Shown in pieces: positions 14,090 to 63,714 of a DNA stretch of 64,000 nt (within the stretch, counting starts at the first letter, position 1; each line of letters starts with the position of its first letter). This stretch comes from a virus (lineage: Duplodnaviria; Caudoviricetes). Location: positions 192,001 through 256,000 of the IMG/VR virus record IMGVR_UViG_3300018430_000021; one strand, written 5' to 3'. The notes under the pieces are model-generated. The model was not told the origin of the DNA. It saw nothing but the letters and a program-made list of their open reading frames with translations, and made no database searches. Both the position numbers and the translations under genes were made by a program.

Positions 14090-15061
14090 ATGATGAATTT
14101 AATAGAAGCAAAATCGGTTTTAAAGTCCTCTGACTATATCCTCGAGTCCAAGGGTGACATAGTTATTCAGAATTTGTTGAATACTCTCGTTACGGCATGT
14201 GAACTTTACATTTCGCATGACTATGAAAGAATTCAGAAGGCTTACAGGTCTGCAAGGGCACAGACGTTTCTGTCAAGTGACCCGATAATTCTCCCGAAGA
14301 AAACGTATACCAAGGCCGGTATGACATTTACCGTTCCTCCCGTTATGTTCATGATGGACAAGGACTTCAAGCAGTTCAATCATGATAATTCATGGAATGT
14401 TAGCGGTGTCTATGAATCAAAGATTTCAGAAAATCCGAAAGTAAGTGCTCTTATGGACAAATTCGGTGTCAAGAAGACATGGGCCGGCGTCGTTATTATT
14501 ACCGAGCAGACAAAGTTCAGTAAGTTTAGCAAACCGGAATTCTTGGATGTATTTAGGACAAATATCCGAATGACTTTGAAACATGAGCTTCTTCATTATG
14601 TTCAAGGAATTGCGAAGAGAATCGCGGAAGACAGGATTACTCCTATTATCGAGGAACAGAACAGTTATATTCTGAATATTCTTAAAGATACGAGCATTGT
14701 ATATGATAACGAAGAAGTAGATTCCGAAGACGAATATACAAGATATATGCTCAAGAGTAAGGAAATCGATGCAAGATTCCATCAGGAAATCACGACATTC
14801 CTTGTTACCCGCAAGATAGATCCAAATAATCTGGAAGATGCGGCCAATAAGTTTATTTCCACATATATCTGGAAGCTTGAAGACTTACCGGAAAAAACAA
14901 AGACCGCAATTTATAATCGACTCATCTTTATTTTAGAGCAGTGCAAGGAACTTGGATTGTTTGAAAAAGTCACCGATGAAGACGGTGACGAAGAAGTAAA
15001 GATTAAGCAGATTTATAGAGAAAAGGGCGATGCCGCCCTTTGGAATCTTATTGGGAAATAG
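14090..15061 (+). CDS. HExxH metallopeptidase-like protein, putative head protein (start probably 14090 or 14093)
   Basis: TLKHELLHYVQ, EIDAR; N-terminus MNLIEAKSVLKSSDYILE; CATAAATA at 14080. Confidence 0.65.
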   Translation: MMNLIEAKSVLKSSDYILESKGDIVIQNLLNTLVTACELYISHDYERIQKAYRSARAQTFLSSDPIILPKKTYTKAGMTFTVPPVMFMMDKDFKQFNHDNSWNVSGVYESKISENPKVSALMDKFGVKKTWAGVVIITEQTKFSKFSKPEFLDVFRTNIRMTLKHELLHYVQGIAKRIAEDRITPIIEEQNSYILNILKDTSIVYDNEEVDSEDEYTRYMLKSKEIDARFHQEITTFLVTRKIDPNNLEDAANKFISTYIWKLEDLPEKTKTAIYNRLIFILEQCKELGLFEKVTDEDGDEEVKIKQIYREKGDAALWNLIGK

Positions 15062-16343
15062 TTTTCACGAAAGTCTTATTGAATGACTGGAAAGGAATTT
15101 CCTCTTCTATTTCGTAATCGTCGTCATAACATAGGATTACGTTATTGACGTCATCTACTTCGATTTCCGGATAACGCTTGTCGAACATGAGCTTACCGGT
15201 AGTTGTATTCAACAGGTTTTGACCTGCATGGAAATAACTTACGGTAAACAGGTTCATCATTGGCGTTTCGTTTAAACTCTGACATTTTTCATCGTCGACA
15301 AAACGTTTTCTCTTCAAGTCAAAAATCAAATAATCGTATTTACCTTCGCAAAGAACAAAATTTGATAAATCGGAACGATAAGACTTCATGACCAATCTGG
15401 TAAACTTCTTATCGGTAAGAAATTTTCCGTTTTTATCAATAAGGGTATACTGACCGAAACGACCGCTTTCATCTGCACAGATTGCCGCGAATACTTCATA
15501 ACCTATATGCTTATAGACACAGGCATAAATGTCGTTATCCCAAAGTTTTGTATTCATCTTGAAGAACAACTTGTTCGGCAAGAAATTATAGGTTAAAACT
15601 TTGACATTCTTCAGTGTCTTAAGGTTATTGATATTCAGTTCGTCTTCGGCGACAGTTCTATGACGACCAACGAGATATGCGGTAAAAGCCCAGTTGACAT
15701 CGTTGTTTTCTACTTCGGCGGACATGACGACATAAAAATGTTTATTGACGTCAAGATTTGTTTCATCATCGTCGTCATCTTCTATATTTCCACTATTCGT
15801 AGGAACATGTGCGAAGTCTAAAGCGATATGTTTCGAAACAGAGAAAGAATTAAATTCCTTTGTAGTGTTATCGAGCATAGGAATAATTCTTTCGGGATTA
15901 TAAAAGATTTTCTTGTCTTTCTTATATGCCGAGATAATATCAGTAAGCGAAAGAGTCAGACCGCGATAAACTGTTGTATAGCCTTTGCTCATGTACTTTT
16001 TAAGGAAATTCCATTCGCACTGAACAAGGTCGTTAGCTTCGCGGTTTTTCTTAAGATAATTCGCTACGTCTTCATTGGATTCGAGTTCTTTCAAAGTAAT
16101 ATCGTTAATTGCATTGACGTCAATCATGCCAGAAAGGACCGCAAGAGCGATAGTATAATAATCCTTCTGTTTTACATTCAACCATAAGGATCCGTCCTTA
16201 TCGTTGTAATGAGTTGAAGTATAATCTACTTTTCGTTTTTCGCGGCCCTGTTTGGCCAAATCTGCATACTTACCGTATTTTTTCTGGGTAAGAGCAGGAA
16301 GTTCAGACATTTCATTTAGATAATTTGAAAGACTCTTGTACAT
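15048..16343 (-). CDS. putative R-S-E class ADP-ribosyltransferase with C-terminal beta-repeat region
   Basis: TVYRGL, FNSFS, AEDEL motifs in order; CATAAATA at 16348-16355. Confidence 0.6.
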   Translation of the reverse strand: MYKSLSNYLNEMSELPALTQKKYGKYADLAKQGREKRKVDYTSTHYNDKDGSLWLNVKQKDYYTIALAVLSGMIDVNAINDITLKELESNEDVANYLKKNREANDLVQCEWNFLKKYMSKGYTTVYRGLTLSLTDIISAYKKDKKIFYNPERIIPMLDNTTKEFNSFSVSKHIALDFAHVPTNSGNIEDDDDDETNLDVNKHFYVVMSAEVENNDVNWAFTAYLVGRHRTVAEDELNINNLKTLKNVKVLTYNFLPNKLFFKMNTKLWDNDIYACVYKHIGYEVFAAICADESGRFGQYTLIDKNGKFLTDKKFTRLVMKSYRSDLSNFVLCEGKYDYLIFDLKRKRFVDDEKCQSLNETPMMNLFTVSYFHAGQNLLNTTTGKLMFDKRYPEIEVDDVNNVILCYDDDYEIEEEIPFQSFNKTFVKTISQ

Positions 16344-16359
16344 ACATTATTTATGACTA

Positions 16360-17172
16360 CTATATCTTTTCAAAATATTTCTTTATAGTCATATCTATTG
16401 TATCGTAACCGCCATAACCCGGATTGTTATGTATATTCTCGTCATACGGGTGTTTCTCGCATGCGGCACTTCCACGAGCCCATTTCTTTTTCCAGTCGTC
16501 GATAGACTTCAGATGATAGTGGTAAAGACGAATTCCAGCTTCATGGTCAGTAAGACCGTAAGTAGAATCCTTTGTAATGTCAGAACCGACTACCTTAGCC
16601 ATACGGAACCATTCCTTGCTTCCAGGATATTTGGTAAACGGAATATGACCGACTTCTCTGTTATTCTTGCTGAAACAGAACTTAATATTCGGACTGTATA
16701 AAATAATACACTTTCCTTGGCTGGAAACGTCGTTTCTTCTATAATAATTGGTAAACACGTAAGGAGCAGAACGCTGTTCATTAAGATGTTTGGAACTCAT
16801 ATAGATTTGCGGTACACAGATAACATCGAGGGGCGTTTCCAAGAATACGTCACCGATTCGTGCTTCCCATCTTCCGTCAAACCAGAAATATTCGTCATCG
16901 TCAGCAAATATAACATAGTCGTTTTCCGCAATATTATATGGATTTTCGGAAAGTATGGTATCAAACAGCTTCCACTGGTTTGGCCAGCCAGAAAGTTTTT
17001 CATAGGTATCTGGGTCCTTGACGACAGACTTGATGTCGACTGAGGAATCGTTGTCTATAACATGGATCTTGACGTTTCCGCCCAGGGAACGATAGTATTT
17101 GTACCAGGTTTCGAAATCGAGAATGTTATAGGATTTGGTGAGACAGATTATATGGAGGGTATTATTTGTCAT
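16360..17172 (-). CDS. GT92/GT2-like glycosyltransferase (start probably MTNNTLH)
   Basis: W.KYY..LG, HVIDNDS, VIFADDDEYF, LYHYHLKS; paralog of 37169-38017. Confidence 0.75.
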   Translation of the reverse strand: MTNNTLHIICLTKSYNILDFETWYKYYRSLGGNVKIHVIDNDSSVDIKSVVKDPDTYEKLSGWPNQWKLFDTILSENPYNIAENDYVIFADDDEYFWFDGRWEARIGDVFLETPLDVICVPQIYMSSKHLNEQRSAPYVFTNYYRRNDVSSQGKCIILYSPNIKFCFSKNNREVGHIPFTKYPGSKEWFRMAKVVGSDITKDSTYGLTDHEAGIRLYHYHLKSIDDWKKKWARGSAACEKHPYDENIHNNPGYGGYDTIDMTIKKYFEKI

Positions 17173-17320
17173 CTGGGTAATCTTGTCCAAGAACGGCTAA
17201 AAGTACGGCACCTACGATAGTTAAAATGCTTGAAGCGGCATAGGATTCGAAAATAACCCATATTGCCCAAGCTACAAAGATAAGTAATAGTGCTGAAATT
17301 AAAGTTATTTTGTGTTTCAT
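17162..17320 (-). CDS. 52-aa two-TM membrane protein (not in ORF track)
   Basis: MKHKITLISALLLIFVAWAIWVIFESYAASSILTIVGAVLLAVLGQDYPDDK translated by hand. Confidence 0.55.
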   Translation of the reverse strand: MKHKITLISALLLIFVAWAIWVIFESYAASSILTIVGAVLLAVLGQDYPDDK

Positions 17321-17353
17321 ATATTTAAATATAGCAAACTTTTAAAAAATGTT

Positions 17354-17361
17354 TATAAATA
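17354..17361 (+). promoter_or_regulatory. T4-type late promoter TATAAATA
   Basis: Exact match upstream of 17387. Confidence 0.75.
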
Positions 17362-17386
17362 AGATATATAAGAATTTGGAGTTTTT

Positions 17387-17836
17387 ATGCCTAATAACAA
17401 TTTTTTGACAGAAGCGAGCATGATTCTCGATTACGGCTACGGTGCAACGCCTAAGATGAACGAAAATGCCTATGACGACCGTGTAGCCCAGGATGCAAAC
17501 GAAGACGAACAGTTTATGAACCAGATTGAAGAACCTGAGGCAACAGCCGAACCTGACGAAACAGCAGACTTGCTTGCCAAGGCAGCAGAACTTTCAGAAG
17601 TTGCTCAGACTCTTATCGAAGTCAAACCTGAACAGGTAAAGGCCATGGGTGAAGAAGGTGCAAGGAAGATTTTTGCTCTTGCCTATCTCGGTTCTGAATG
17701 TAATGCCATTGAACAGGCTTATTCTGACTTCATGAACGCCGATGAGACTATTGAAGTTAAAGAATCCACTGACAATATGGATTATCTGGCCAGCCGAATG
17801 CTCCGCGAACCTGGTATGCTGGAAGACGAAGAATAA
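17387..17836 (+). CDS. acidic putative head or scaffold-like protein
   Basis: Late promoter, SD GGAG, several L/I-x-E sites, very acidic. Confidence 0.55.
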   Translation: MPNNNFLTEASMILDYGYGATPKMNENAYDDRVAQDANEDEQFMNQIEEPEATAEPDETADLLAKAAELSEVAQTLIEVKPEQVKAMGEEGARKIFALAYLGSECNAIEQAYSDFMNADETIEVKESTDNMDYLASRMLREPGMLEDEE

Positions 17837-17855
17837 TTTTACTCACCTGAAACAT

Positions 17856-17882
17856 AAAACCGACCTTATGGGTCGGTTTTTC
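17856..17882. terminator. Bidirectional intrinsic terminator
   Basis: AAAACCGACC-TTATG-GGTCGGTTTT between convergent genes. Confidence 0.85.
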
Positions 17883-17893
17883 TTTATAATTAC

Positions 17894-18490
17894 CTACTTG
17901 TGTTTGATAGGTTCTTTATAATGATGTACTTCAACAGTTTTCTTAACCGTATCTACGATGAGTAAATCCAGATTGGAAAACTTAAAACCCTTGGAGTTAA
18001 TAACGTCATAAGCACTAATTCCCGGATTTCCGGTCATATAGTGATAGATATAACGAATTAACATTCCATGAGAAATAGCAATTACAGCATTCGTGTTATT
18101 TTCGTGACGAATGTCGTTTCCCATATCATGCAAGACAATCTTGGCACGTTTTTCCATCGTAGAAGCTGGAAGGAAAACTAGCCGATTGAATTCTTCTTCT
18201 GTAATTTCCCAGAACTTTTTGTTTCCGAGAGCCTTGCATTCGAATTCTCCAAGACTCTTGGTCACTTCGCACGGAAAACGGTCAAAAAGAAGTTTTGCCG
18301 TGCTGATGCATCGTTTTGTAGGAGAACTGACAATAACCTTCCTGTCTTCTTCAGGAATAAACTTGCCAACACAATCTTCCCAATCGTCCGGCTTGTCATA
18401 AAGGTTAATATCCGAGTTTTCATATCCGGCAATCATCGAACCAGAGAGGTTTGCCGAAGTCGGTGCATGTCTGATGAAATAGAATTTCAA
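17894..18490 (-). CDS. histidine phosphatase (phosphoglycerate mutase family)
   Basis: YFIRHA, SSPTKRC..TA, LGE, AISHG motifs. Confidence 0.85.
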   Translation of the reverse strand: MKFYFIRHAPTSANLSGSMIAGYENSDINLYDKPDDWEDCVGKFIPEEDRKVIVSSPTKRCISTAKLLFDRFPCEVTKSLGEFECKALGNKKFWEITEEEFNRLVFLPASTMEKRAKIVLHDMGNDIRHENNTNAVIAISHGMLIRYIYHYMTGNPGISAYDVINSKGFKFSNLDLLIVDTVKKTVEVHHYKEPIKHK

Positions 18491-18687
18491 CGGTAACTAT
18501 CTCCAATAGTGAGTTCTTGTTCAACTAAAACGTTTTCGTCGTTAAAGATATTCTTAAGTTCAATAACCTTGAGGTTATATTCTTCTGCGACTTTATTAAA
18601 TGGATCAATGTTATTAAACAACATCTGGTCAACGAGTTCTTGCGGGATTGCCTTATCACTTAAATTCTTAACTTTTACTGTAACCAT
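18487..18687 (-). CDS. hypothetical protein
   Basis: Tiling ORF with SD GAGG. Confidence 0.55.
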   Translation of the reverse strand: MVTVKVKNLSDKAIPQELVDQMLFNNIDPFNKVAEEYNLKVIELKNIFNDENVLVEQELTIGDSYR

Positions 18688-18943
18688 AATATCCTCTAAA
18701 TATTTATTTTTCGGTAAAGTGATCGAATATACCGGCTAGAATCGAAATTCCGATAATCAATAAAACGACAAAACCTGCCGCATAGACTGCTGAGGCGAGT
18801 TCACTATAAATTCCGGCTGTTCCTGAACCTGCATTCTGGGCGGCGAGGAGGATTCTCATTGTTTCTACGTCAGTGTTCATATATTAAATATAGTTTTCGC
18901 CGTAATTTATTCGTAAAAAGCCAGTGATATAAATCACTATAAA

Positions 18944-19110
18944 GTATGTAAGCCGTGAATATGTCCGTGTCACCCTATCCTTAGTAGCCGAGTCCACGAA
19001 TCTCCGCCGGGGTGTAACTACCTCCCCAACTGCTTTATTAACCACGTGAATAATTGCGCTTTCGGCGCCAGCGCCCTATCGGACCACAGACATATTCACG
19101 ACTTACATAT
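18944..19110 (-). ncRNA. Structured ~165-nt ncRNA, Y-RNA-like
   Basis: ~25-bp terminal stem with UGGUCCGA/UGAC motif; internal hairpins; promoter directly upstream. Confidence 0.6.
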
Positions 19111-19112
19111 AC

Positions 19113-19144
19113 AATATAGTAATTTTTTATCCTCTTGTCAACCC
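19113..19144 (-). promoter_or_regulatory. Early promoter GGG-TTGACA-N17-TATATT
   Basis: Matches the repeated consensus. Confidence 0.8.
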
Positions 19145-19912
19145 TTAATCTTCGTCTTCGCCATCAACATTGAAATAATGTTCATAGGCTTCGTCGATGT
19201 TCTTAATGCCGAGATCCTTAAGACTTGGAATAGGAAGTTCATAAAATTCATCCTTCTTCGCGTCATATCCGGTAATCGAAATACCGTCAATCTTGAATCG
19301 GTTGCACGGTTCATAGAAGAAACCATGAAGATAAAATTCCAAAAAATCTTGAAGTGATCCAAGATTATACCATGCGCCATCATAATCAGAAAGGTCATCA
19401 TAGTGTTCAAGAATTGCCAGCTTGATTAGCTCTTCAACGCTTGGCTCGCCATCCTGTTGACTTGAAACCGTAATACAGTCAGCATCACGTTGGTCAATAT
19501 CGAATGTGACGACATAGTAAGATTTCTTCTTCTTGACAGTCTTCTTGAAAGAATCGATACCGGAAGGAATCTTTGATTCATCAAATTCGGGTCTACCCGC
19601 TACAAGCTTGATAGCTGCAATATTTTGAGAGCCGAATCTAAATTTTCTTGTATCATTGCCGTTTTTTACTTCGAACTTCGTACAGTATTCACCAAGACCG
19701 CTTACATATTCTTCATAAACTCTGGTAATTTCGCCGGTAAATGGTTCATTGAGATACTTTGTAATTCCATCACGATTGTAAGTATAAACGGAAACGGTGT
19801 CACCGCGTCTTACCTTTTTAACATCGGGCAAAGATTCGTCGATTTCCGGGGCGACAATTTCTGGTGTTTGTTTTGCAAGGATAGAGTTAAGCATTTCTTC
19901 TTTTGTAGGCAT
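19145..19912 (-). CDS. hypothetical protein
   Basis: Long ORF, SD AGGAG. Confidence 0.75.
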   Translation of the reverse strand: MPTKEEMLNSILAKQTPEIVAPEIDESLPDVKKVRRGDTVSVYTYNRDGITKYLNEPFTGEITRVYEEYVSGLGEYCTKFEVKNGNDTRKFRFGSQNIAAIKLVAGRPEFDESKIPSGIDSFKKTVKKKKSYYVVTFDIDQRDADCITVSSQQDGEPSVEELIKLAILEHYDDLSDYDGAWYNLGSLQDFLEFYLHGFFYEPCNRFKIDGISITGYDAKKDEFYELPIPSLKDLGIKNIDEAYEHYFNVDGEDED

Positions 19913-19926
19913 TATTTGTTCTCCTA

Positions 19927-20691
19927 TTAGCCAAATCTTTTACGGATTGCCGCTTTTTCTACTTTGGTCTGCTTGATACCAAGTTCTTCGCACTTTTCAG
20001 CATCGTTAATAATACGGTCGTAGATTTGACGAGGCGTAGCGTGCATATCCAAATCGTAATCCTTCGGGTGTGCTTCATAATACGGGATAACGAACTTTTC
20101 CACGAATTCTTTTTTATATAACTTATTAATTTCTTTTTTACGCTGATCAATGACCTTACATGCCTGTGCGCGGGTCATACGTTTTCCGTCGACCCACATT
20201 TCATCCATCGGGTCGTCGACATCCTGCATAAGATACTTTTGAACTTCTTTAAGAATCTTAGGACCGTAATTCAACAGATAGAAATAAGAAAAATAGAAAT
20301 GCTTGTCATAACCAAATTCTACGTTAGCACTCTGAGATTGTGCAACGTTTTCATAAGGAATACCAAGTGCAATAGGACATGATAAGGAAAAACGATAAGA
20401 CTTGTATTCATCGCTCGCCCATAGATGAATACAGGCATCACGCCATGAACCTGTATAACATTCGTTATAAAGAGAATTAGCCGTATGCCAGCCGTGTACT
20501 TTTTTAATTTTTGTTTCCGGTAAAAGCAGATAAGCTTCAGCGCCGATATTCTTGAAAGGACAGGCATCATCAAGATGACAATCGGCATATCGATAGTTGC
20601 TGAATTGCTCTTTATTACCATACCCATGTTTGAGAGGCATTATATCTTTAAAAGCTTCGTTGAGTCTTTCAAATGATTTAGTAAAATCCAT
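19927..20691 (-). CDS. hypothetical protein
   Basis: Long ORF downstream of promoter. Confidence 0.75.
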   Translation of the reverse strand: MDFTKSFERLNEAFKDIMPLKHGYGNKEQFSNYRYADCHLDDACPFKNIGAEAYLLLPETKIKKVHGWHTANSLYNECYTGSWRDACIHLWASDEYKSYRFSLSCPIALGIPYENVAQSQSANVEFGYDKHFYFSYFYLLNYGPKILKEVQKYLMQDVDDPMDEMWVDGKRMTRAQACKVIDQRKKEINKLYKKEFVEKFVIPYYEAHPKDYDLDMHATPRQIYDRIINDAEKCEELGIKQTKVEKAAIRKRFG

Positions 20692-20713
20692 TATGTTTTT
20701 CCTTTTTTATCAT

Positions 20714-20746
20714 AATATAAAAAAAAGAGTTGACTTTCGTCAACCC
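20714..20746 (-). promoter_or_regulatory. Early promoter overlapping a terminator hairpin
   Basis: GGGTTGAC-GAAA-GTCAACTC-T-tract-TATATT. Confidence 0.75.
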
Positions 20747-21699
20747 TATAATGTGTAAGTCTTTGCTGAGCCCTTGCCGGTAAAATATACCATACGGTGT
20801 CGCTTATAGGTATTACCGTCTTTACCTTTCCAGCTCGGAGGATAAATCAACTGTGCAAGAGAAATATCATTCTTACCCTTGTTTATACTATCCTTCATTA
20901 TCCACTTGTCCATAAAATATTCAGAAAAACGTCCTTTATTGAATTTGAGTTCGGCCAGGACTTCTTTCTTGTTTTTCTCGATAGCCTTGGCCAGATAGAA
21001 CAGACTTCCACCGGCCGCATATTCAAGATGCAACATTCCTTTGATAGTAGACTTGTCCATGTGTGAAAGAACTTCAGGATCTATCTGTTTCAGTTTCTTG
21101 ATATAATATCGCTTGATAGTTCGGTCAATGTCCTTAGCGGACGTCTCGTCAAGAATCCACTGCGACCAGACAGATTCCAAATCGGTACGCCCGATAGACC
21201 ACCTGATAATATCTTCGATAGTGCCTTTAAACCTTTCACCGCTGTTCTTGTTTACGATAACGATAGGCTTATCATACTTGATAACTTTCTGCATCATGAA
21301 AGCGGTATTGCCGCCGCCGAAATTAAGCCCGCTCGGATTACTTTTTCCGTCCATCTTGTTGTGATAGAAAGAATTGATATTTCCTTCCTTGATGCCGATG
21401 GAACCGTTATAGATTTCGCTTTCGAAGAAGTTATCGAAAACGTCCTGAGTAATCTTTGTCTGGCCGAGAAGACCTTCACGAGGACGTTCTTTCGTTTCCA
21501 TCATGATACTGTGTTTCTTTTCGGTTTCAGGTACGTAATGATACTTGTATTCGAGCATGCAGTAACAACCGAGGAACATTAGACCTGGTAAGATTTCCAT
21601 GACGAAAAACTTTACAACGGCCCAAGGCTTTCTCTTCAGCCAGTACCAAGTGTAAAGGATTGTACATACCAAAAATAATATTAAGAATGTTATAATCAT
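20746..21699 (-). CDS. membrane-anchored hypothetical protein
   Basis: Two N-terminal TM segments. Confidence 0.7.
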   Translation of the reverse strand: MIITFLILFLVCTILYTWYWLKRKPWAVVKFFVMEILPGLMFLGCYCMLEYKYHYVPETEKKHSIMMETKERPREGLLGQTKITQDVFDNFFESEIYNGSIGIKEGNINSFYHNKMDGKSNPSGLNFGGGNTAFMMQKVIKYDKPIVIVNKNSGERFKGTIEDIIRWSIGRTDLESVWSQWILDETSAKDIDRTIKRYYIKKLKQIDPEVLSHMDKSTIKGMLHLEYAAGGSLFYLAKAIEKNKKEVLAELKFNKGRFSEYFMDKWIMKDSINKGKNDISLAQLIYPPSWKGKDGNTYKRHRMVYFTGKGSAKTYTL

Positions 21700-21709
21700 T
21701 TCGGCCTAT

Positions 21710-21741
21710 AATATAGAAAAAGAGTTGACTTTTGTCAACCC
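21710..21741 (-). terminator. tRNA-array terminator doubling as early promoter
   Basis: GGGTTGAC-AAAA-GTCAACTC-TTTTT-C-TATATT immediately 3' of the last tRNA. Confidence 0.75.
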
Positions 21742-21747
21742 TTATAG

Positions 21748-21829
21748 CGGAAGATGAGTGACTCGAACACCCAAGCCATGACGGCGGCAACGTTCGAAAT
21801 TGCTGGCTTACCAATTAGCCTAATCTTCC
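21748..21829 (-). tRNA. tRNA-Ser(CGA)
   Basis: Cloverleaf GGAAGAT/ATCTTCC, loop TT-CGA-AC, long V-arm, G73. Confidence 0.93.
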
Positions 21830-21834
21830 ATTAG

Positions 21835-21926
21835 AAGAGGTGGTAGGATTCGAACCCACGGCCCGGGATGATTACCGGATCACTGGAGTTCAAATCCAGC
21901 GCCATAAACCGCTCGGCCACACCTCC
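21835..21926 (-). tRNA. tRNA-Ser(TGA)
   Basis: GGAGGTG/CACCTCT, loop TT-TGA-AC, long V-arm, U73. Confidence 0.92.
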
Positions 21927-21935
21927 GAAATTTAG

Positions 21936-22021
21936 CTGAGGATGAAAGACTCGAACTTTCAAGCAGATTACTCCACGGCGGCCTTCCAAGCCACTCCCTT
22001 ACCAATTAGGGTTAATCCTCA
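21936..22021 (-). tRNA. tRNA-Ser(GGA)
   Basis: TGAGGAT/ATCCTCA, loop TT-GGA-AG, long V-arm, G73. Confidence 0.92.
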
Positions 22022-22025
22022 AAAT

Positions 22026-22184
22026 GAATACATGCAATGTTTTATACTGACGAGACTCGAACTCGCTTCATACGAATTGTAATTGGCATTTGCAAGAGTA
22101 TCTACCAATAAACGTACCCTTTCCTGATACTTTCGGACGCACGTTCTCTCCTACCTTGATCCAATATAGAGCACGCACATATTC
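22026..22184 (-). ncRNA. tRNA-like structured RNA without a clear anticodon
   Basis: Outer stem GAATATGTGC/GCATGTATTC; acceptor-like TATATTG/CAGTATA stacked on T-arm GCGAG-TTCGAGT-CTCGT. Confidence 0.6.
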
Positions 22185-22188
22185 TTAG

Positions 22189-22265
22189 TCGGCAACATAG
22201 GACTTGAACCTACATGTAACCATTTACTCTTTCTACGCCTTATCAGAGCGAGGAGATAGATGCCG
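22189..22265 (-). tRNA. non-canonical tRNA-Ile(GAT), copy 1
   Basis: Acceptor CGGCATC/GTTGCCG, loop CT-GAT-AA, normal T-arm, no D-arm in the usual place. Confidence 0.75.
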
Positions 22266-22276
22266 ATAATATTTAG

Positions 22277-22353
22277 TCGGTATCATAGGAATTGAACCTA
22301 CATGCAACCAATTACCCTTTCGACGCCTTATCAGAGCGAGGGGATAGATACCG
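22277..22353 (-). tRNA. non-canonical tRNA-Ile(GAT), copy 2
   Basis: Acceptor CGGTATC/GATACCG, loop CT-GAT-AA, compensatory changes versus copy 1. Confidence 0.75.
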
Positions 22354-22420
22354 ATAGATATTGACATTTTTCAGTGATCCAGTTATTGGCTTAGATATGT
22401 CCAATGTCAATAATTTTTAG

Positions 22421-22494
22421 TCCCGGAGGTTGGGCTCGAACCAACGACCTTTTGATTATGATTCAAACGCTCTAACCAGCTGAGCTACTCCGGG
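22421..22494 (-). tRNA. tRNA-Met/Ile2(CAT)
   Basis: CCCGGAG/CTCCGGG, loop AT-CAT-AA, A73. Confidence 0.92.
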
Positions 22495-22498
22495 AAAA

Positions 22499-22558
22499 TA
22501 GCGAGAAGTATATATTACGGATTTAAAGTCCGTTTTTATATAGGAACTTCTTTTGCTA
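22499..22558 (-). ncRNA. mini-RNA carrying an anticodon-like arm with TTA (ochre)
   Basis: Rod ending in ACGGA-CTTTAAA-TCCGT; terminal helix shared with 22571-22655. Confidence 0.55.
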
Positions 22559-22570
22559 TTAAACTTTTTA

Positions 22571-22655
22571 TAGCGGGATGTAATCGCCATACGGCTTCGG
22601 ATTTGAACCGATAAGGCATGTGAGCCTATTACCAAAATAGGAACATCCTATGCTA
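22571..22655 (-). ncRNA. mini-RNA with D-like and T-like arms, no anticodon
   Basis: CCTATT-TTGGT-AATAGG and TCGG-TTCAAAT-CCGA hairpins inside the shared terminal helix. Confidence 0.55.
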
Positions 22656-22660
22656 TGTAG

Positions 22661-22750
22661 AGCTATCTGCAGGATTCGAACCTGCGACGGGGATTTTATC
22701 CACAGCGGAGTTGCAGTCCGCTACCTTCGACCGCTCGGTTACAAGACAGC
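22661..22750 (-). tRNA. tRNA-Cys(GCA) with long variable arm
   Basis: GCTGTCT/AGATAGC, loop CT-GCA-AC, U73. Confidence 0.88.
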
Positions 22751-22761
22751 TTAATTTTAAA

Positions 22762-22884
22762 TTCCACCGCGTGCTTTTACCGAAGAGCCCGCGAAAACTT
22801 CAGTGGCCTACCACCTTGTTGTTTCATACTAAACACGACCGCTGTTTTAAGGCCGCAGCCTTTTTCGCACAGCGTCACGGCGAA
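22762..22884 (-). ncRNA. GC-rich rod-like structured RNA
   Basis: Nested stems TTCGCCGTG/CGCGGTGGA, GCGAAAA/TTTTCGC, GGCCT/AGGCC, TGTTT/AAACA. Confidence 0.5.
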
Positions 22885-22893
22885 CTATTTTCG

Positions 22894-22980
22894 TGCTAGC
22901 TAAGGGAGTCGAACCCCTGTTGTTAACTCGTAAGAGACGTGATCTACAGTCACGCGCAATCGCCACTCTGCCAAACTAGC
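22894..22980 (-). tRNA. tRNA-Tyr(GTA)
   Basis: GCTAGTT/AGCTAGC, loop CT-GTA-GA, long V-arm, A73. Confidence 0.92.
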
Positions 22981-22987
22981 ATTTTAG

Positions 22988-23072
22988 TGACAGCGGTAGG
23001 ACTCGAACCTACGGAAGCTCGTTAGAGCGGGAGGGTTACAGCCTCCAGGAATTGCCGCTATCCGACACTGCC
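22988..23072 (-). tRNA. tRNA-Tyr(GTA)
   Basis: GGCAGTG/CGCTGTC, loop CT-GTA-AC, long V-arm, A73. Confidence 0.92.
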
Positions 23073-23151
23073 AAATATCGGGCTTTCACCGATTGCCCGA
23101 ACAAACGATCCTATACAACATACGTCTCAAGGGTCTGTTCGATCATATAAT

Positions 23152-23186
23152 AAAAAAATAAAAGCGTCACTTTTCGGTGACGCCTT
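23152..23186 (-). terminator. Attenuator terminator upstream of the tRNA array
   Basis: AAGGCGTCAC-CGAAAA-GTGACGCTTTTATTTTTTT. Confidence 0.88.
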
Positions 23187-23214
23187 GAAACTCTATAAAT
23201 GAGTATTCTTGGTG

Positions 23215-23310
23215 TCACCCACCAGTCTTAATAATATACATGCCATAGATTGAGGATGTGGAGCATCCGCAAATCGAAGAACATTAATATGTATATAACT
23301 GGTGAGTCAT
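23215..23310 (-). CDS. Leader peptide MTHQLYTY*CSSICGCSTSSIYGMYIIKTGG (in-frame TAA at codon 9)
   Basis: SD AAGGA; codons match the downstream tRNAs; final TGA lies inside the antiterminator strand. Confidence 0.75.
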
Positions 23311-23380
23311 TGCTTTTATCCTTTTAATATTATATATAAAAAATTTTTTGTGTTTTTTGCTTTTTGTTTTAACGTTGTTA

Positions 23381-23412
23381 AATATAGTAAATTGTGTTGT
23401 ACTTGTAAACCC
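23381..23412 (-). promoter_or_regulatory. Early promoter driving the leader and tRNA array
   Basis: GGG-TTTACA-N17-TATATT. Confidence 0.75.
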
Positions 23413-23415
23413 CTT

Positions 23416-23655
23416 TTAGAAAAAATTTTTTTCTTCCGAGTTTTTCCCTCTGATTCGGAACCACAAGAATACGACACTGCCAAGCATTATGACACCATGA
23501 ACCAGACATCCGGTGAAGTGTATTATCGACATGGAACCTTTGTGTGGACCTACAACTTCATAAAGATGTTGGTAGTTAAAAATAAACATACCGACATTGA
23601 ATATTATATAGGCCAATACGCCGAGCATCACATAAATCTTTTCTTCTTTCATCAC
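23416..23655 (-). CDS. small two-TM membrane protein
   Basis: Two hydrophobic segments. Confidence 0.6.
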   Translation of the reverse strand: MMKEEKIYVMLGVLAYIIFNVGMFIFNYQHLYEVVGPHKGSMSIIHFTGCLVHGVIMLGSVVFLWFRIRGKNSEEKNFF

Positions 23656-24461
23656 CAGCTCTCCTCATAGAGTAATACTTCGCACGGCATGCGATCTTCG
23701 TCTCGCCATTTCTTGAATCGTTCCAAGTATGTTTTGATACTGTCAAAATACCAGTAATCATAATGTAAATTACCGAAGAAAAATCCAGGACGTGACGGAA
23801 GATATTTCGCAGCTGCTTCGTTTTGATCTTGCGTAGCAGTCCAGTTGTTATGCCAGTCTACAGCTTCTGGAATATACCAACCTTCGTCGTTAGTTTCTGG
23901 TTTGTTGAATGTTTCTGCGAACGTCTTGAATTCGCCAGCGGCCATAATCTTTTCCATACGGTCGATAATGTCGTTGACATGCTGAAGAGTCAGAATCGCT
24001 AATCCGTCTTCAAGAATTTTGTTATCATAACCAGATTCAACATGCAGCCTTTCAGGAAACGAGTTATAGACATATTGAAGCATCCAGTTCTTTTTTCTCA
24101 TGTATAAAGGTTGATATTGACCTTCATAAGTAAAGCCAATTTCCTTTTTGAGAGACTCATAACGGTTTTCAACATATTCCCAGCCTGAAAGGTCAATGGG
24201 ATTCATGAAATCCTTAATGTCATAGTTAGGTTCGTTGGTACGGTCAAAGTCATAGTCGATACCTTGTTCATTTTTCTCTTCCATGATTTTACATTGTTCG
24301 TTATACCACTTGTTCCATTTCTTACTGGCTTTGTCAAGCGGCTCGCGATACTTTTCACCATAGGCGTTATAGGCAATATCATATTGCTTACTTGCATCGA
24401 GAAATTCTTCGGCTTTTTCTTTCGACGATACCCGATAAAAATAAATGTCTAAACCCATCAT
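23652..24461 (-). CDS. conserved phage protein (MGLDIY...GFFFG type)
   Basis: MGLDIYF N-terminus, LPSRPGFFFG...YDYWY, terminal YEESW. Confidence 0.7.
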   Translation of the reverse strand: MMGLDIYFYRVSSKEKAEEFLDASKQYDIAYNAYGEKYREPLDKASKKWNKWYNEQCKIMEEKNEQGIDYDFDRTNEPNYDIKDFMNPIDLSGWEYVENRYESLKKEIGFTYEGQYQPLYMRKKNWMLQYVYNSFPERLHVESGYDNKILEDGLAILTLQHVNDIIDRMEKIMAAGEFKTFAETFNKPETNDEGWYIPEAVDWHNNWTATQDQNEAAAKYLPSRPGFFFGNLHYDYWYFDSIKTYLERFKKWRDEDRMPCEVLLYEESW

Positions 24462-24582
24462 TCCTCCGATGGATATTCGTTTCTTATAGTTTCGAATTCG
24501 CGTTGTTGTTTTTCAACATCTACACGTTCGAACTTTACGCCTTCGCCTAATTCTTCTTTAGTTTCTTCGTCCATAAAACCTC

Positions 24583-25002
24583 CTAGAACATCTGGCCGAC
24601 AGCTTCGATATAGATTTCGAACCAGTATTTATCTTGTTCATCCTTTCTCAGCTTAACGATGAGTTTCGGAGAGATGATTTCCGGATTATCTTCCAATAAG
24701 TACATGTTGACTTCTTCGGTCAATATTCCTGCATCATCGTAATAGGTATTATTTTCCAGATGTTCTGTTTCGTCATATTGCCAGTTACTTTCGTATTTCT
24801 CGATAAGGTCTGTACAGACTTTATATATTACTTCGAGAAGCGAACCTGCGGAAACCGGATCCTCGTCTGTACCTGACCATTGCAGTTTAAGCCTACGGGC
24901 CAAATCAACCGCACTGTCAAGTTCAAAAGCTTCTACGGATTCAATCAATATGTTATGCCATTTATTCCAATCAATAGTCATGTTAACCTCGGTTTTCTCC
25001 AA
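24583..25002 (-). CDS. hypothetical protein
   Basis: Tiling ORF. Confidence 0.65.
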   Translation of the reverse strand: MEKTEVNMTIDWNKWHNILIESVEAFELDSAVDLARRLKLQWSGTDEDPVSAGSLLEVIYKVCTDLIEKYESNWQYDETEHLENNTYYDDAGILTEEVNMYLLEDNPEIISPKLIVKLRKDEQDKYWFEIYIEAVGQMF

Positions 25003-25382
25003 ACCATATGTCCGTCTTCTTCTTCGACGAACCTTCTTTTTTCATAAAATATTTTGCTTTCTGGTAATGTCGTAAGGTCGATATAATTATGGTCTTCCTT
25101 CAGTCGGTCAATCATTTTTCTTCCGATGGATTCACAACGGTTATTCGGATGTACTTCGAGAGAATATACATGTATATTTTCAGGAGTTCTTTCTTCGAAT
25201 ATCATAATGGCCAACGGATGTGTTACTTCCTGACTGATAAGGAACCTGATAACGATACCTTCTGTATCTATAAATTGTTTAGCACATTTAAAGGATAACG
25301 GAAAACTGTCCGGGTCTATAAGGCCCAGGCATTCCCTAGTAAACGGAAGGTCTTTCAAATATCGCATATTACGGTTTATCAA
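24978..25382 (-). CDS. GNAT N-acetyltransferase
   Basis: LEVHPNNRCESIGRKMI, FYEKRRF motifs. Confidence 0.75.
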   Translation of the reverse strand: MINRNMRYLKDLPFTRECLGLIDPDSFPLSFKCAKQFIDTEGIVIRFLISQEVTHPLAIMIFEERTPENIHVYSLEVHPNNRCESIGRKMIDRLKEDHNYIDLTTLPESKIFYEKRRFVEEEDGHMVWRKPRLT

Positions 25383-25489
25383 ACGGACGTGTAAAGAAGT
25401 CCATTATCCAGCTAAATATGATAAAAATAACTACCATGAGAAATCCGATAATAGCTACCGGAAACATGGCAACATCTACAAGAAATTCT

Positions 25490-25702
25490 TTAACTTTTGG
25501 CATTTAATTCTTCCCTACATTGCTTGAGTACCTTTTCGAATTCGCCGGACTGTATTGCTTCGTGGAGAATGTGGCTTACAAGGTCTTCAACGGTAATACC
25601 TTTTTCATCAGCTTCTTTTTGAAGCTTTTCATAAAGTTCATCAGGAAGGTCAAACGACAATACATCTGTGTTTTCATTATTCTGCATCTGGATTTTCCTC
25701 AT
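25490..25702 (-). CDS. ribbon-helix-helix DNA-binding protein
   Basis: LSFDLPDELYEKLQKEADEKGITVEDLVSHIL. Confidence 0.7.
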   Translation of the reverse strand: MRKIQMQNNENTDVLSFDLPDELYEKLQKEADEKGITVEDLVSHILHEAIQSGEFEKVLKQCREELNAKS

Positions 25703-26039
25703 CTATCGGCATTAGAACGCCGGTTCGCATGTTTTGATAAAATTTTTTACTGTAAGCTTTTCTTACTTTAGAATAATATTCTGAATCATGTTGTGCGTAT
25801 GGATTTGCCCAAACAAGTAAATACCGAACATTCTGTAGGTCTCTACGACATACAGGACATTCGGTAATAGGAGTTATACTTCCATTAACATCGAAATACC
25901 ATGGGTTTTCGTCTGTACCACGATAGAATAGGCATTTTTTAGCTTTGGTGTCATCGCGTTTGAACGTTTTAAACCAAAGCCTTGTAGTGGCATCCCATGG
26001 GCCAGACTTATATTGTATGGTTTCGCAATACTCACACAT
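25677..26039 (-). CDS. CxxC zinc-binding protein
   Basis: MCEYC...CPVC. Confidence 0.65.
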   Translation of the reverse strand: MCEYCETIQYKSGPWDATTRLWFKTFKRDDTKAKKCLFYRGTDENPWYFDVNGSITPITECPVCRRDLQNVRYLLVWANPYAQHDSEYYSKVRKAYSKKFYQNMRTGVLMPIDEENPDAE

Positions 26040-26040
26040 C

Positions 26041-26904
26041 TTATCCCCATTTTTCTACTTCTTTCCGAATATCTTCATTGGCTAAGGCATGACTTATATA
26101 AGTACGAACCTGCCTGAAGAACTCCTGCTCTGTAACAGGTCGTTCTTGTTTGTGACCATAAACTAAATCGTCAAGTTTTTCGGAAAACGCTTCCAGAGAC
26201 AATTTTTTCGGGTATTTGCGTTTTCTAAACCAGTCATCGATGTCTTTTCTGGTAACATCGGTCGGGATAGCGATTTTTTCACGTTTCATCCAGTCTTCGT
26301 GATGGTCGTTGAAATCCCAGTCGATAACACGGTCAAACCCGAAGTTGTTGAGCATTCCGTCCATGGTTTTCGGACCAAGGTTACGGAGAACTTCCATAAT
26401 TTCGGCAGCATGTTCAAGAGTAAGATACTGGTCGAAATATTTGAATTTATTCATCAAACGAATACGGTAGAGCTGGTCACGTTTTGCTTCCAGTTTATCG
26501 TAGTTTTCTGAACTAAAGTCATAAAGTTTTCCATACGGCTGTTCGTCGAAAATGATGTCGTTTACTCGAAGCAATACTTCTTCGACGTCCATATAACGAG
26601 CGAGAGCTTTAAGGAAAGCTTTGGTTTCACGTGCCGTTTCTTCAAATTCGCGGTCACGCAAAGAACCAATAACAGTAATCACACCGTTATCGTAACCGTC
26701 AGCGTTGTCTGAAGAATACGACGACGCATGCTGGGTCGCATAAACGGAAGTTTCGATTGGACCTTCAGAACCGGTAATATTAAATCCACGTTTTTCCATA
26801 TCACGAAGAGCCCAGTTGACATAATCAACAAGACGATCTTTGCGAACCGTTTCAAACGGAAGGCGAATTCTGACAATACCACTTATATACGTCCAATGAC
26901 TCAT
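26041..26904 (-). CDS. hypothetical phage protein
   Basis: Long ORF after promoter 26928-26959. Confidence 0.75.
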   Translation of the reverse strand: MSHWTYISGIVRIRLPFETVRKDRLVDYVNWALRDMEKRGFNITGSEGPIETSVYATQHASSYSSDNADGYDNGVITVIGSLRDREFEETARETKAFLKALARYMDVEEVLLRVNDIIFDEQPYGKLYDFSSENYDKLEAKRDQLYRIRLMNKFKYFDQYLTLEHAAEIMEVLRNLGPKTMDGMLNNFGFDRVIDWDFNDHHEDWMKREKIAIPTDVTRKDIDDWFRKRKYPKKLSLEAFSEKLDDLVYGHKQERPVTEQEFFRQVRTYISHALANEDIRKEVEKWG

Positions 26905-63625: not shown

Positions 63626-63714
63626 TCTGCTGGGTGGGAATCGAACCCACAAGCCATTAAGGCGGAAGCATCTGAGTCTTCTGTGTCTACCATAAACTAT
63701 TCCACCACCAGCGG
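63626..63714 (-). tRNA. tRNA-Leu(CAG)
   Basis: Loop CT-CAG-AT, enlarged D-loop, one acceptor mismatch. Confidence 0.85.

Follow-up and report, generated by a model that had tools for sequence, protein, structure and literature searches.

The structural diversity of cytosolic transfer RNAs (tRNAs) was described in a 2024 paper as variation in arm size only, natural tRNAs without an arm or without a cloverleaf being found only in mitochondria (PMC11551756). In the mitochondrial tRNAs that lack a D-arm, the elbow contacts between D-loop and T-loop are lost and the molecule takes a Y shape (PMC11551756). Here we describe two neighboring genes of a giant phage that very likely encode tRNA-Ile(GAU) with a re-threaded D region. 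They lie in a stretch of 64,000 nucleotides of viral DNA (Caudoviricetes), hereafter the window, which corresponds to bases 192001-256000 of a 291-kb IMG/VR virus record (IMGVR_UViG_3300018430_000021) with an estimated completeness of 70%. The genes, copy A and copy B, are each 77 nt long and are 88% identical; they are located 11 nt apart on the minus strand, within a tRNA operon of the same strand. We refer to genes with this arrangement as rewired.

Compared with canonical tRNA-Ile(GAU) (RF00005), the rewired genes have in common the 7-bp acceptor, A73, the 5-bp T-stem with a UUCRA loop, the anticodon loop C-U-GAU-A-A and the bases U8, A14, G18, G19, U20 and U20a, and they share the same operons and trailers. 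They differ in the order of the blocks, in the lack of a position-26 hinge, in a variable-loop remnant of 3 nt and in a three-way junction. The latter is also a property of the mitochondrial D-arm-less tRNAs, such as mt-tRNA-Ser(AGY), and of the engineered 'mini HisT' (PMC11551756). Unlike the mitochondrial type, the rewired genes keep a D-stem (100% paired and covarying), a GG strand and a canonical T-loop, have a length of 77 nt and belong to phages of bacteria. They resemble the allo-tRNAs and the 8/4 or 9/3 tRNAs in being non-standard architectures from metagenomes, of which some are in phages and some have a UAU anticodon (Mukai et al., PMC5389517). However, the allo-tRNAs have an altered split between acceptor and T-stem and keep the D hairpin and a long variable arm (PMC5389517), whereas the rewired genes have the standard 7/5 split and a re-threaded D region. 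A description of this fold was not found in the full-text literature searched, whose coverage leaves out most subscription journals.

A preliminary description of the window had expected standard scanners to miss such genes, and they did. Neither copy was reported by ARAGORN in the window, and RF00005 had no match on the minus strand at either copy, even at E<=10. A family member submitted to ARAGORN with a relaxed score and in the mitochondrial and intron modes was not found either. No model in Rfam 15 matched either gene, those of other tRNA-like RNAs (such as the tmRNA tRNA-like domain and YrlA/Y RNA-like) included; the sole match under them (17 bits, E=3.2) was on the opposite strand and belonged to an unrelated plastid leader family. 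The copies are located in a gap of 398 nt, 'empty' by ARAGORN and Rfam, between a Met(CAU) gene and three Ser genes. In comparison, a covariance model of the family (R1) gave 90.1 and 89.0 bits for the two copies and at most 22 bits for every canonical tRNA in the window, so that a chance resemblance can be dismissed. A canonical tRNA-Ile(GAU) received only 22.5 bits from R1. The features that define R1 are all present in both copies: the 7-nt acceptor strands, U8 A9 U10, three base pairs (11-13 with 22-24) enclosing a spacer, the anticodon arm and N-GAAA, then U25, A R N N G G U N R, C A Y, the T-arm, A73 and an NAU anticodon. The sequence and these scores agree with the preliminary description in that two 77-nt genes of tRNA-Ile type with a non-cloverleaf layout are located here.

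Layout of the copies and covariation

Both copies begin with the 7-nt acceptor strand and U8 A9, followed by U-CCC-C in copy A or U-CUC-C in copy B and by the anticodon arm UCGCU-CUGAUAA-GGCGU. Downstream of this arm come N-GAAA, GGG-U or GAG-U, then AAUUGGUUG or AAAUGGUUA, and CAU; the segment between U25 and C-A-U reads A-A-N-U-G-G-U-U-R in both. The 3' portion consists of the T-arm GUAGG-UUCAAKU-CCUAU, the acceptor 3' strand and A73. Between A9 and the point at which the anticodon stem starts to pair there is room for only 6 nt; the two D-stem strands are found on either side of the anticodon arm. The D hairpin of a cloverleaf (stem 10-13/22-25, loop 14-21) is absent from both copies between position 9 and the anticodon arm. 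We also tried a cloverleaf in another register, including one in which the D-arm has a giant loop, and rejected it; the D-stem 3' strand and the T-arm are only 12 nt apart, which is too little for a second anticodon arm.

The remaining parts are ordinary. The anticodon loop CUGAUAA has 7 nt, U33 and a purine at 37, as in a canonical anticodon arm, and the T-arm has the canonical 5-bp stem, a 7-nt UUCRAnn loop and G53:C61. A 7-bp acceptor had been claimed for both copies. This is true for copy A (7/7 pairs), while copy B forms six pairs with a U6.U67 mismatch; U.U is the mismatch type at 6:67 in 21 of 138 family members. The copies differ at nine positions. Four of these make up two compensatory pairs (from A to B, 4:69 changes from U:A to C:G and the 12:23 equivalent from C:G to U:A), one creates the U.U mismatch, and four are at positions that vary in the family. 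None of the nine touches an invariant column of the family alignment. The D-stem letters of copy B, C11-U12-C13 and G22-A23-G24, match those of Escherichia coli tRNA-Ile.

A1, the alignment of the family, has 138 rows, each a distinct member; copy A is row 1 and copy B is row 2. Its covariation score was 0.71, compared to 0.18 for shuffles (none of 500 as high) and 0.11-0.13 when the partners were slid by one to three columns. This is the covariation among homologs that the preliminary description had set as a test. Double changes occurred in seven acceptor, four anticodon-stem and four T-stem pairs. The equivalent of the D-stem, in which 11-13 pair with 22-24 and enclose the anticodon arm, was unpaired in none of the 138 sequences, and it took on several pair types at two of its positions (columns 11:39, CG 108, AU 25 and UA 5; columns 12:38, CG 77, UA 51, AU 5, GC 3 and UG 2). 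Three pair types at one D-stem pair and five at another, without a single unpaired case, support the earlier suggestion that the odd layout is under selection. The search patterns left all of the covarying columns free. Without a structure being supplied, RNAalifold predicted the same four helices and nothing else.

Invariant in A1 are U8, the A14 equivalent (the A after U25), G18, G19, G53:C61 and the UUCRA T-loop. The equivalent of 15:48 covaries: the purine two bases past the D-stem 3' strand goes together with the pyrimidine before the T-stem, as A:U in 89 and G:C in 35 sequences, with 10 exceptions. The invariance of U8 and A14 and this covariation are signatures of the U8:A14 pair and the 15:48 Levitt pair of ordinary tRNA, and for this reason we read the GG segment as a D-loop. 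The strand A-R-N-N-G-G-U-N-R is best read as the D-loop (positions 14-21) relocated behind the D-stem 3' strand, and C-A-Y as a variable-loop remnant of 3 nt that ends in Y48. The alignment indicates that the D-stem is kept but closed around the anticodon arm, with a three-way junction instead of a four-way one. The G of the GAAA linker could pair with the invariant spacer C14.

Distribution, genomic context and the arginine branch

Members of the family were collected from viral contigs with sequence patterns. An exact pattern on the anticodon arm yielded nine further loci with the same layout and compensatory changes. A wide 3' pattern, leaving the anticodon and the 5' half free, matched at least 116 viral loci, and a wide 5' pattern, leaving the GG segment and the T-arm free, at least 119. 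GAAA was fixed in both wide patterns and free only in the exact one, every match of which still had it. The wide patterns combined gave at least 163 distinct sequences from at least 206 viral loci, and 162 of the 163 sequences were 76-78 nt long. The anticodons of 162 sequences were all of isoleucine type, reading isoleucine codons (108 UAU, 50 GAU and 4 CAU), and A73 was present in 151 of them. Of the 163 sequences, 162 have C74 after the discriminator and 21 encode CCA.

The family is confined almost only to viruses. A scan of prokaryotes with the 3' pattern, using one genome per species (185,579 genomes), returned 12 matches, all on contigs of metagenome-assembled genomes and mostly in dense mixed tRNA arrays. 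Among GenBank phages, blastn with a UAU member retrieved 80 records, and blastn with copy B had no match. A family member is carried by 77 records of Streptomyces phages of the cluster BE group, in nearly all of which it is unannotated. In phage EGole, a rewired tRNA-Ile(GAU) gene (L270:15266-15342; NC_055791.1 75265-75341; R1 95.4 bits) is labeled tRNA-Leu in RefSeq. Our guess is that the annotators arrived at Leu by reading the loop out of register, as UAA. The gene directly follows one annotated as 'nucleotidyltransferase'. The crAss-like Bacteroides phage Kehishuvirus tikkala has a member (R1 89.6 bits) in an unannotated gap between tRNA-Trp and tRNA-Met. Because the cultured carriers are phages of Streptomyces and Bacteroides, hosts of different phyla would have to accept the tRNA. 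At L002:5159-5231, a degenerate rewired Ile copy adjoins two intact members; its 5' half is intact, its GG segment is truncated and the acceptor 3' strand is missing. It is probably a pseudogene.

The rewired genes are embedded in tRNA arrays. In all 161 cases with a canonical tRNA located within 500 nt of a rewired gene, the two shared a strand, none being on opposite strands, and the median gap was 34 nt. Rewired UAU genes were beside a canonical GAU gene in 16 cases vs a canonical UAU gene in 3; rewired GAU genes were beside a canonical UAU gene in 13-14 cases vs a canonical GAU gene in 4. The genome from which the window was taken has 42 tRNAs by ARAGORN, none of them for Ile, and AUU and AUC make up 6.0% of the codons in its long open reading frames (ORFs). 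In a 100% complete relative of 416 kb (415,750 bp), which carries terminal repeats, one region is 93% identical to window 22181-22356, and copy B has the same identity (93%) to its counterpart there. ARAGORN found 47 tRNAs for 19 amino acids in this relative, in which only Ile is lacking, and its sole genes with an Ile anticodon are two rewired GAU genes. A phage isoleucyl-tRNA synthetase (IleRS) was found neither in the genome of the window, nor in four complete huge phages, nor in EGole. Both copies have a C-TAA trailer after the discriminator, as do 24 of the 42 canonical tRNAs of the genome.

The only large cluster of neighboring proteins consisted of HNH endonuclease ORFs, which were located within 3 kb of a rewired gene in 90 of 258 viral loci (e.g. 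L149:9286-10329, minus strand). In 126 of 127 cases, ORF and rewired gene shared a strand, and for a quarter of them the distance did not exceed 51 nt. The sample is biased, as it comprises ORFs within 3 kb of rewired genes, and we claim no specific linkage. The HNH ORFs could be a homing-endonuclease vehicle that helps the rewired genes to spread. Their role as a dedicated partner protein was considered and is not claimed, the sampling being centered on the rewired genes.

A second branch of the family has arginine anticodons. A generic structure descriptor run over the collected loci returned two members with an ACG anticodon, and a pattern for their AGAA linker, which is one nucleotide shorter, was then run. 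It gave 55 viral loci and 39 aligned sequences (alignment A2) with the anticodons UCU (17), ACG (12), UCG (8) and CCG (1), all for Arg, plus one UAU; one further Arg-family gene with a CCU anticodon came from a looser descriptor scan. The topology of A2 is the same, with a covariation of 0.76 vs 0.23 for shuffles, and CCA is encoded in 19 of the 39. The Arg and Ile families are alike in U8 A9 U10, the 3-bp D-stem equivalent, the purine-rich linker, the A-A-Y-U-G-G strand, the C-A-U tail and C74 or CCA. Besides its anticodons, the Arg family differs in the A after GG, the AGAA linker, a C:G pair at 27:43 and a spacer G instead of C. A model of the Arg family (R2) scored the Ile copies of the window at 54-55 bits and canonical tRNAs at no more than 29.5 bits, and we conclude from this that the two branches share one architecture. 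When the looser descriptor was applied to about 3.1 Mb of tRNA-rich phage loci and this genome, only Ile and Arg anticodons passed; the rest were canonical tRNAs or junk.

At the base after GG, equivalent to position 20, Arg members have A and Ile members have U; the single UAU member of the AGAA set has U as well. In bacteria, A20 is the main determinant of arginyl-tRNA synthetase, and U20/U21 are determinants of IleRS (PMC9976931). The relocated GG strand therefore carries the synthetase-specific D-loop base that matches the anticodon, which is hard to explain unless the cognate enzymes charge these RNAs. The bacterial identity set for tRNA-Ile comprises A73, C4-G69, U12-A23, G16, U20, U21, C29-G41, G34, A35, U36, A37 and A38 (PMC9976931, Table 1). 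The major determinants G34, A35, U36, A37, A38 and A73 are all present in both copies. Of the minor ones, copy B has C4:G69 and U12:A23, and both copies have UU after GG.

The genome of the window also has a possible arginine counterpart, outside the window and in another tRNA array. It is an 80-nt gene on the minus strand (G000:C1:271356-271435) with a 7-bp acceptor, the loop CUACGAA (Arg ACG) and a normal T-arm. The segment after its anticodon arm contains A-A-C-U-G-G-A, and R2 gave 42.6 bits for it and 45.5 bits for the counterpart in the complete relative (G001:C1:304297-304376). ARAGORN reported no tRNA-Arg in this genome. The gene is probably a divergent rewired tRNA-Arg.

Function and competing explanations

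In our opinion, both genes are very likely functional elongator tRNA-Ile(GAU) genes of a phage tRNA operon. Their transcripts would be made within this operon, processed like the neighboring tRNAs and charged by the host IleRS, and they would decode AUU and AUC. The acceptor/T-arm half of the molecule is canonical and the other half re-threaded. The D-stem 5' strand (11-13) leads directly into the anticodon arm and the 3' strand (22-24) returns past the arm and the GAAA linker, and the D-stem would thus form a coaxial extension of the anticodon stem. A14, R15, G18, G19, U20, U20a and R21 are placed behind the D-stem 3' strand, and the variable-loop remnant of 3 nt ends in Y48. We infer that the core layers U8:A14, 15:48 and G18/G19 with the T-loop still form and that the L-shape and the distance from anticodon to elbow are kept. 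A stack of about ten layers (five anticodon-stem pairs, C14:G, three D-stem pairs and U10.U25) would be maintained as in the canonical anticodon branch. Such a molecule would be acceptable to RNase P, the CCA enzyme, IleRS, EF-Tu and the ribosome.

Some observations are less favorable to this reading. U.U mismatches are fixed family-wide at 10:25 and at 27:43 (the outermost anticodon-stem pair), to which copy B adds another at 6:67. Folding of the single sequences gave modest z values vs shuffles (-1.25 and -1.69) and did not reproduce the 7-nt anticodon loop. Several minor identity elements deviate: 29:41 is G:C instead of C:G and the 16 equivalent is U or A instead of G in both copies, and copy A has U:A at 4:69 and C:G at 12:23. 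The members were gathered by sequence patterns, and the invariance of columns fixed in the patterns (e.g. GAAAG) is partly an effect of the collection. EGole also has canonical genes for tRNA-Ile(GAU) and tRNA-Ile(UAU), and a rewired gene is therefore not always the sole source of tRNA-Ile.

A wider scenario is put forward only tentatively. In it, a single re-threading event created a three-way-junction scaffold that keeps the L-shape. The scaffold might then have spread among unrelated phages (actinophages, crAss-like, marine and huge phages), perhaps with homing endonucleases, and switched between Ile and Arg identity. It would be used routinely in bacterial translation, and it would persist because defence tRNases, decay pathways or other host factors that recognize the canonical D-arm overlook or fail to attack the altered D region, while acceptance by synthetases, EF-Tu and the ribosome is retained. 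Evasion of host tRNA-directed nucleases or decay would be a plausible reason for the fold. Another idea, that the fold is limited to Ile and Arg as the targets of nucleases, was rejected, as the paper checked uses tRNA-Ile merely as a model substrate and lends no support.

It is unlikely that the RNAs, made and folded as above, act as tRNA-like decoys or regulators, binding a host factor specific for tRNA-Ile or tRNA-Arg (e.g. an anticodon nuclease or other defence tRNase, a modification enzyme or a T-box leader) and delivering no isoleucine to the ribosome. Such a role would agree with a fold that is not known among cytosolic tRNAs (PMC11551756) and with some carriers that also have a canonical tRNA with the same anticodon. 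However, a decoy has no need for the combination of A73 and C74 or CCA, the 12-bp acceptor/T branch that EF-Tu reads, A37, a position-20 synthetase determinant that switches with the anticodon class, anticodons complementary to those of the adjoining canonical Ile genes, and a complete genome in which the rewired genes are the only ones with an Ile anticodon in an otherwise full tRNA set.

The preliminary description had drawn the GG segment as a hairpin resembling a D-arm. The function would then be the same, a tRNA-Ile, and a complete D-arm, with U-A-R closing an N-N-G-G loop, would have moved to a place 3' of the anticodon arm. We consider this quite unlikely, although the hairpin can be drawn in both copies, is part of the minimum-energy fold of copy B and can pair in 90% of the cells. 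It showed no covariation (145 of 500 shuffles scored as well), its middle A:U pair was broken in 32 of 132 sequences collected with the 3' half free, and RNAalifold predicted no helix there. Moreover, the 15 equivalent covaries with the 48 equivalent and cannot pair with both partners. These results speak for the relocated D-loop strand and against the hairpin proposed earlier.

Finally, it is highly improbable that the genes are decaying pseudogenes or canonical genes whose transcripts would become cloverleaves again only after splicing or some other RNA rearrangement, as the rejection by standard finders and the one clearly degenerate copy (L002:5159-5231) might suggest, because there are at least 163 distinct intact sequences with compensatory changes in every helix and invariant functional positions, 162 of the 163 have a length of 76-78 nt, and with 12 nt from the D-stem 3' strand to the T-arm no alternative register gives a cloverleaf.

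Other features of the window and significance

The coordinates of the two genes, of their parts and of the operon are compiled in Table 1.

Table 1. Positions of the rewired tRNA-Ile(GAU) genes, their structural parts and the surrounding operon in the window
Feature	Coordinates	Strand	Evidence or remark
Copy A, rewired tRNA-Ile(GAU) gene, 77 nt	22277..22353	-	R1 90.1 bits, E 1e-22; row 1 of alignment A1
Copy B, rewired tRNA-Ile(GAU) gene, 77 nt	22189..22265	-	R1 89.0 bits; row 2 of A1
Copy A acceptor 5' strand	22347..22353 (pairs with 22278-22284; A73 at 22277)	-	In the family, 7/7 pairs covary and 96% of cells are paired
Copy A D-stem 5' strand equivalent (11-13, CCC)	22341..22343 (pairs with 22315-22317, GGG, across the anticodon arm)	-	Columns 11-13 with 37-39 paired in 100% of 138 sequences
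Copy A anticodon arm	22323..22339 (anticodon GAU at 22330-22332)	-	Loop CUGAUAA with U33, A37 and A38; four stem pairs covary
Copy A linker C-GAAA, from anticodon arm to D-stem 3' strand	22318..22322	-	GAAA invariant in A1
Copy A U25 equivalent, D-loop-like strand A-A-U-U-G-G-U-U-G and C-A-U (last U is the 48 equivalent)	22302..22314	-	A14 equivalent and GG invariant; columns 42/53 (15:48 equivalent) covary
Copy A T-arm GUAGG-UUCAAUU-CCUAU	22285..22301	-	G53:C61 equivalent invariant; four pairs covary
Copy B anticodon GAU	22242..22244	-	Sequence, alignment A1
tRNA operon of the same strand: Tyr, Tyr, Cys, Met(CAU), two rewired Ile, Ser, Ser, Ser	21720..23072	-	ARAGORN, Rfam, terminator scan

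The operon spans about 23072 to 21747 and has a terminator-like hairpin at its end (21743-21720). Eight ORFs (139-431 aa) that flank it at window 15051-26904 had no match to a PHROG family at E<=0.001. Upstream of the array, a short ORF at 23209-23310 (minus strand) reads MTHQLYTY up to a stop, after which Cys, Ser, Ile and Tyr are abundant; downstream of it, at 23186-23161, is a terminator-like hairpin. The preliminary description had taken four Ile codons of this leader as a sign that the genes act as Ile tRNAs. This support is weak, because an in-frame TAA at leader codon 9 is upstream of all four.

Several other tRNA-like elements were noticed. A tRNA-Cys(GCA) gene of 91 nt at window 22660-22750 (minus strand) combines a long variable arm with an acceptor stem that is mismatched at its base (RF00005 alignment, 36.5 bits), and it might be a tRNA-Cys of the 8/4 or SelC-like type (PMC5389517). 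In the unannotated interval between tRNA-Cys and tRNA-Met (window 22499-22655, minus strand) there are a hairpin with a UUGGU loop, a T-arm-like UCGG-UUCAAAU-CCGA and a second hairpin whose loop would read UAA; neither hairpin was called by tRNA finders. Window 22026-22184 (minus strand) contains a tRNA-like element with the acceptor-like helix TATATTG/CAGTATA, the canonical T-arm GCGAG-UUCGAGU-CUCGU and about 90 nt of other hairpins between them. It has no obvious anticodon arm, and its sole database match was a weak one to YrlA (19.3 bits, E 0.6).

In the 89-nt gap between tRNA-Leu(UAG) and tRNA-Ser(GCU) at window 63626-63714 (minus strand), a tRNA-like gene missed by ARAGORN (R1 17.3 bits) has a long variable arm and an apparently oversized anticodon loop around CAG. 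Outside the window, ARAGORN reported two genes of the same genome (G000:C1:272656-272729 and 277468-277540) as 'tRNA-???' with the two-base anticodons ca and ga. A 6-nt anticodon loop is therefore implied, and the relatives L005 and L008 have the same feature.

If the reading proposed here is true, re-threaded tRNAs for Ile and Arg are used in bacteria of several phyla, and the view that natural departures from the cloverleaf are limited to mitochondria (PMC11551756) would be overturned. The tRNA counts of phages would be systematically too low and some of their genes misnamed, as in the example labeled tRNA-Leu in RefSeq. The family would provide a natural test of which tRNA features are needed by RNase P, the CCA enzyme, class Ia synthetases, EF-Tu and the ribosome, and a new scaffold for tRNA engineering. 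The cultured carriers, namely the Streptomyces phages of cluster BE and the crAss-like phage of Bacteroides, make direct testing possible. If the rewiring evades the host defences that target tRNAs, it would represent a new principle of counter-defence in phages.

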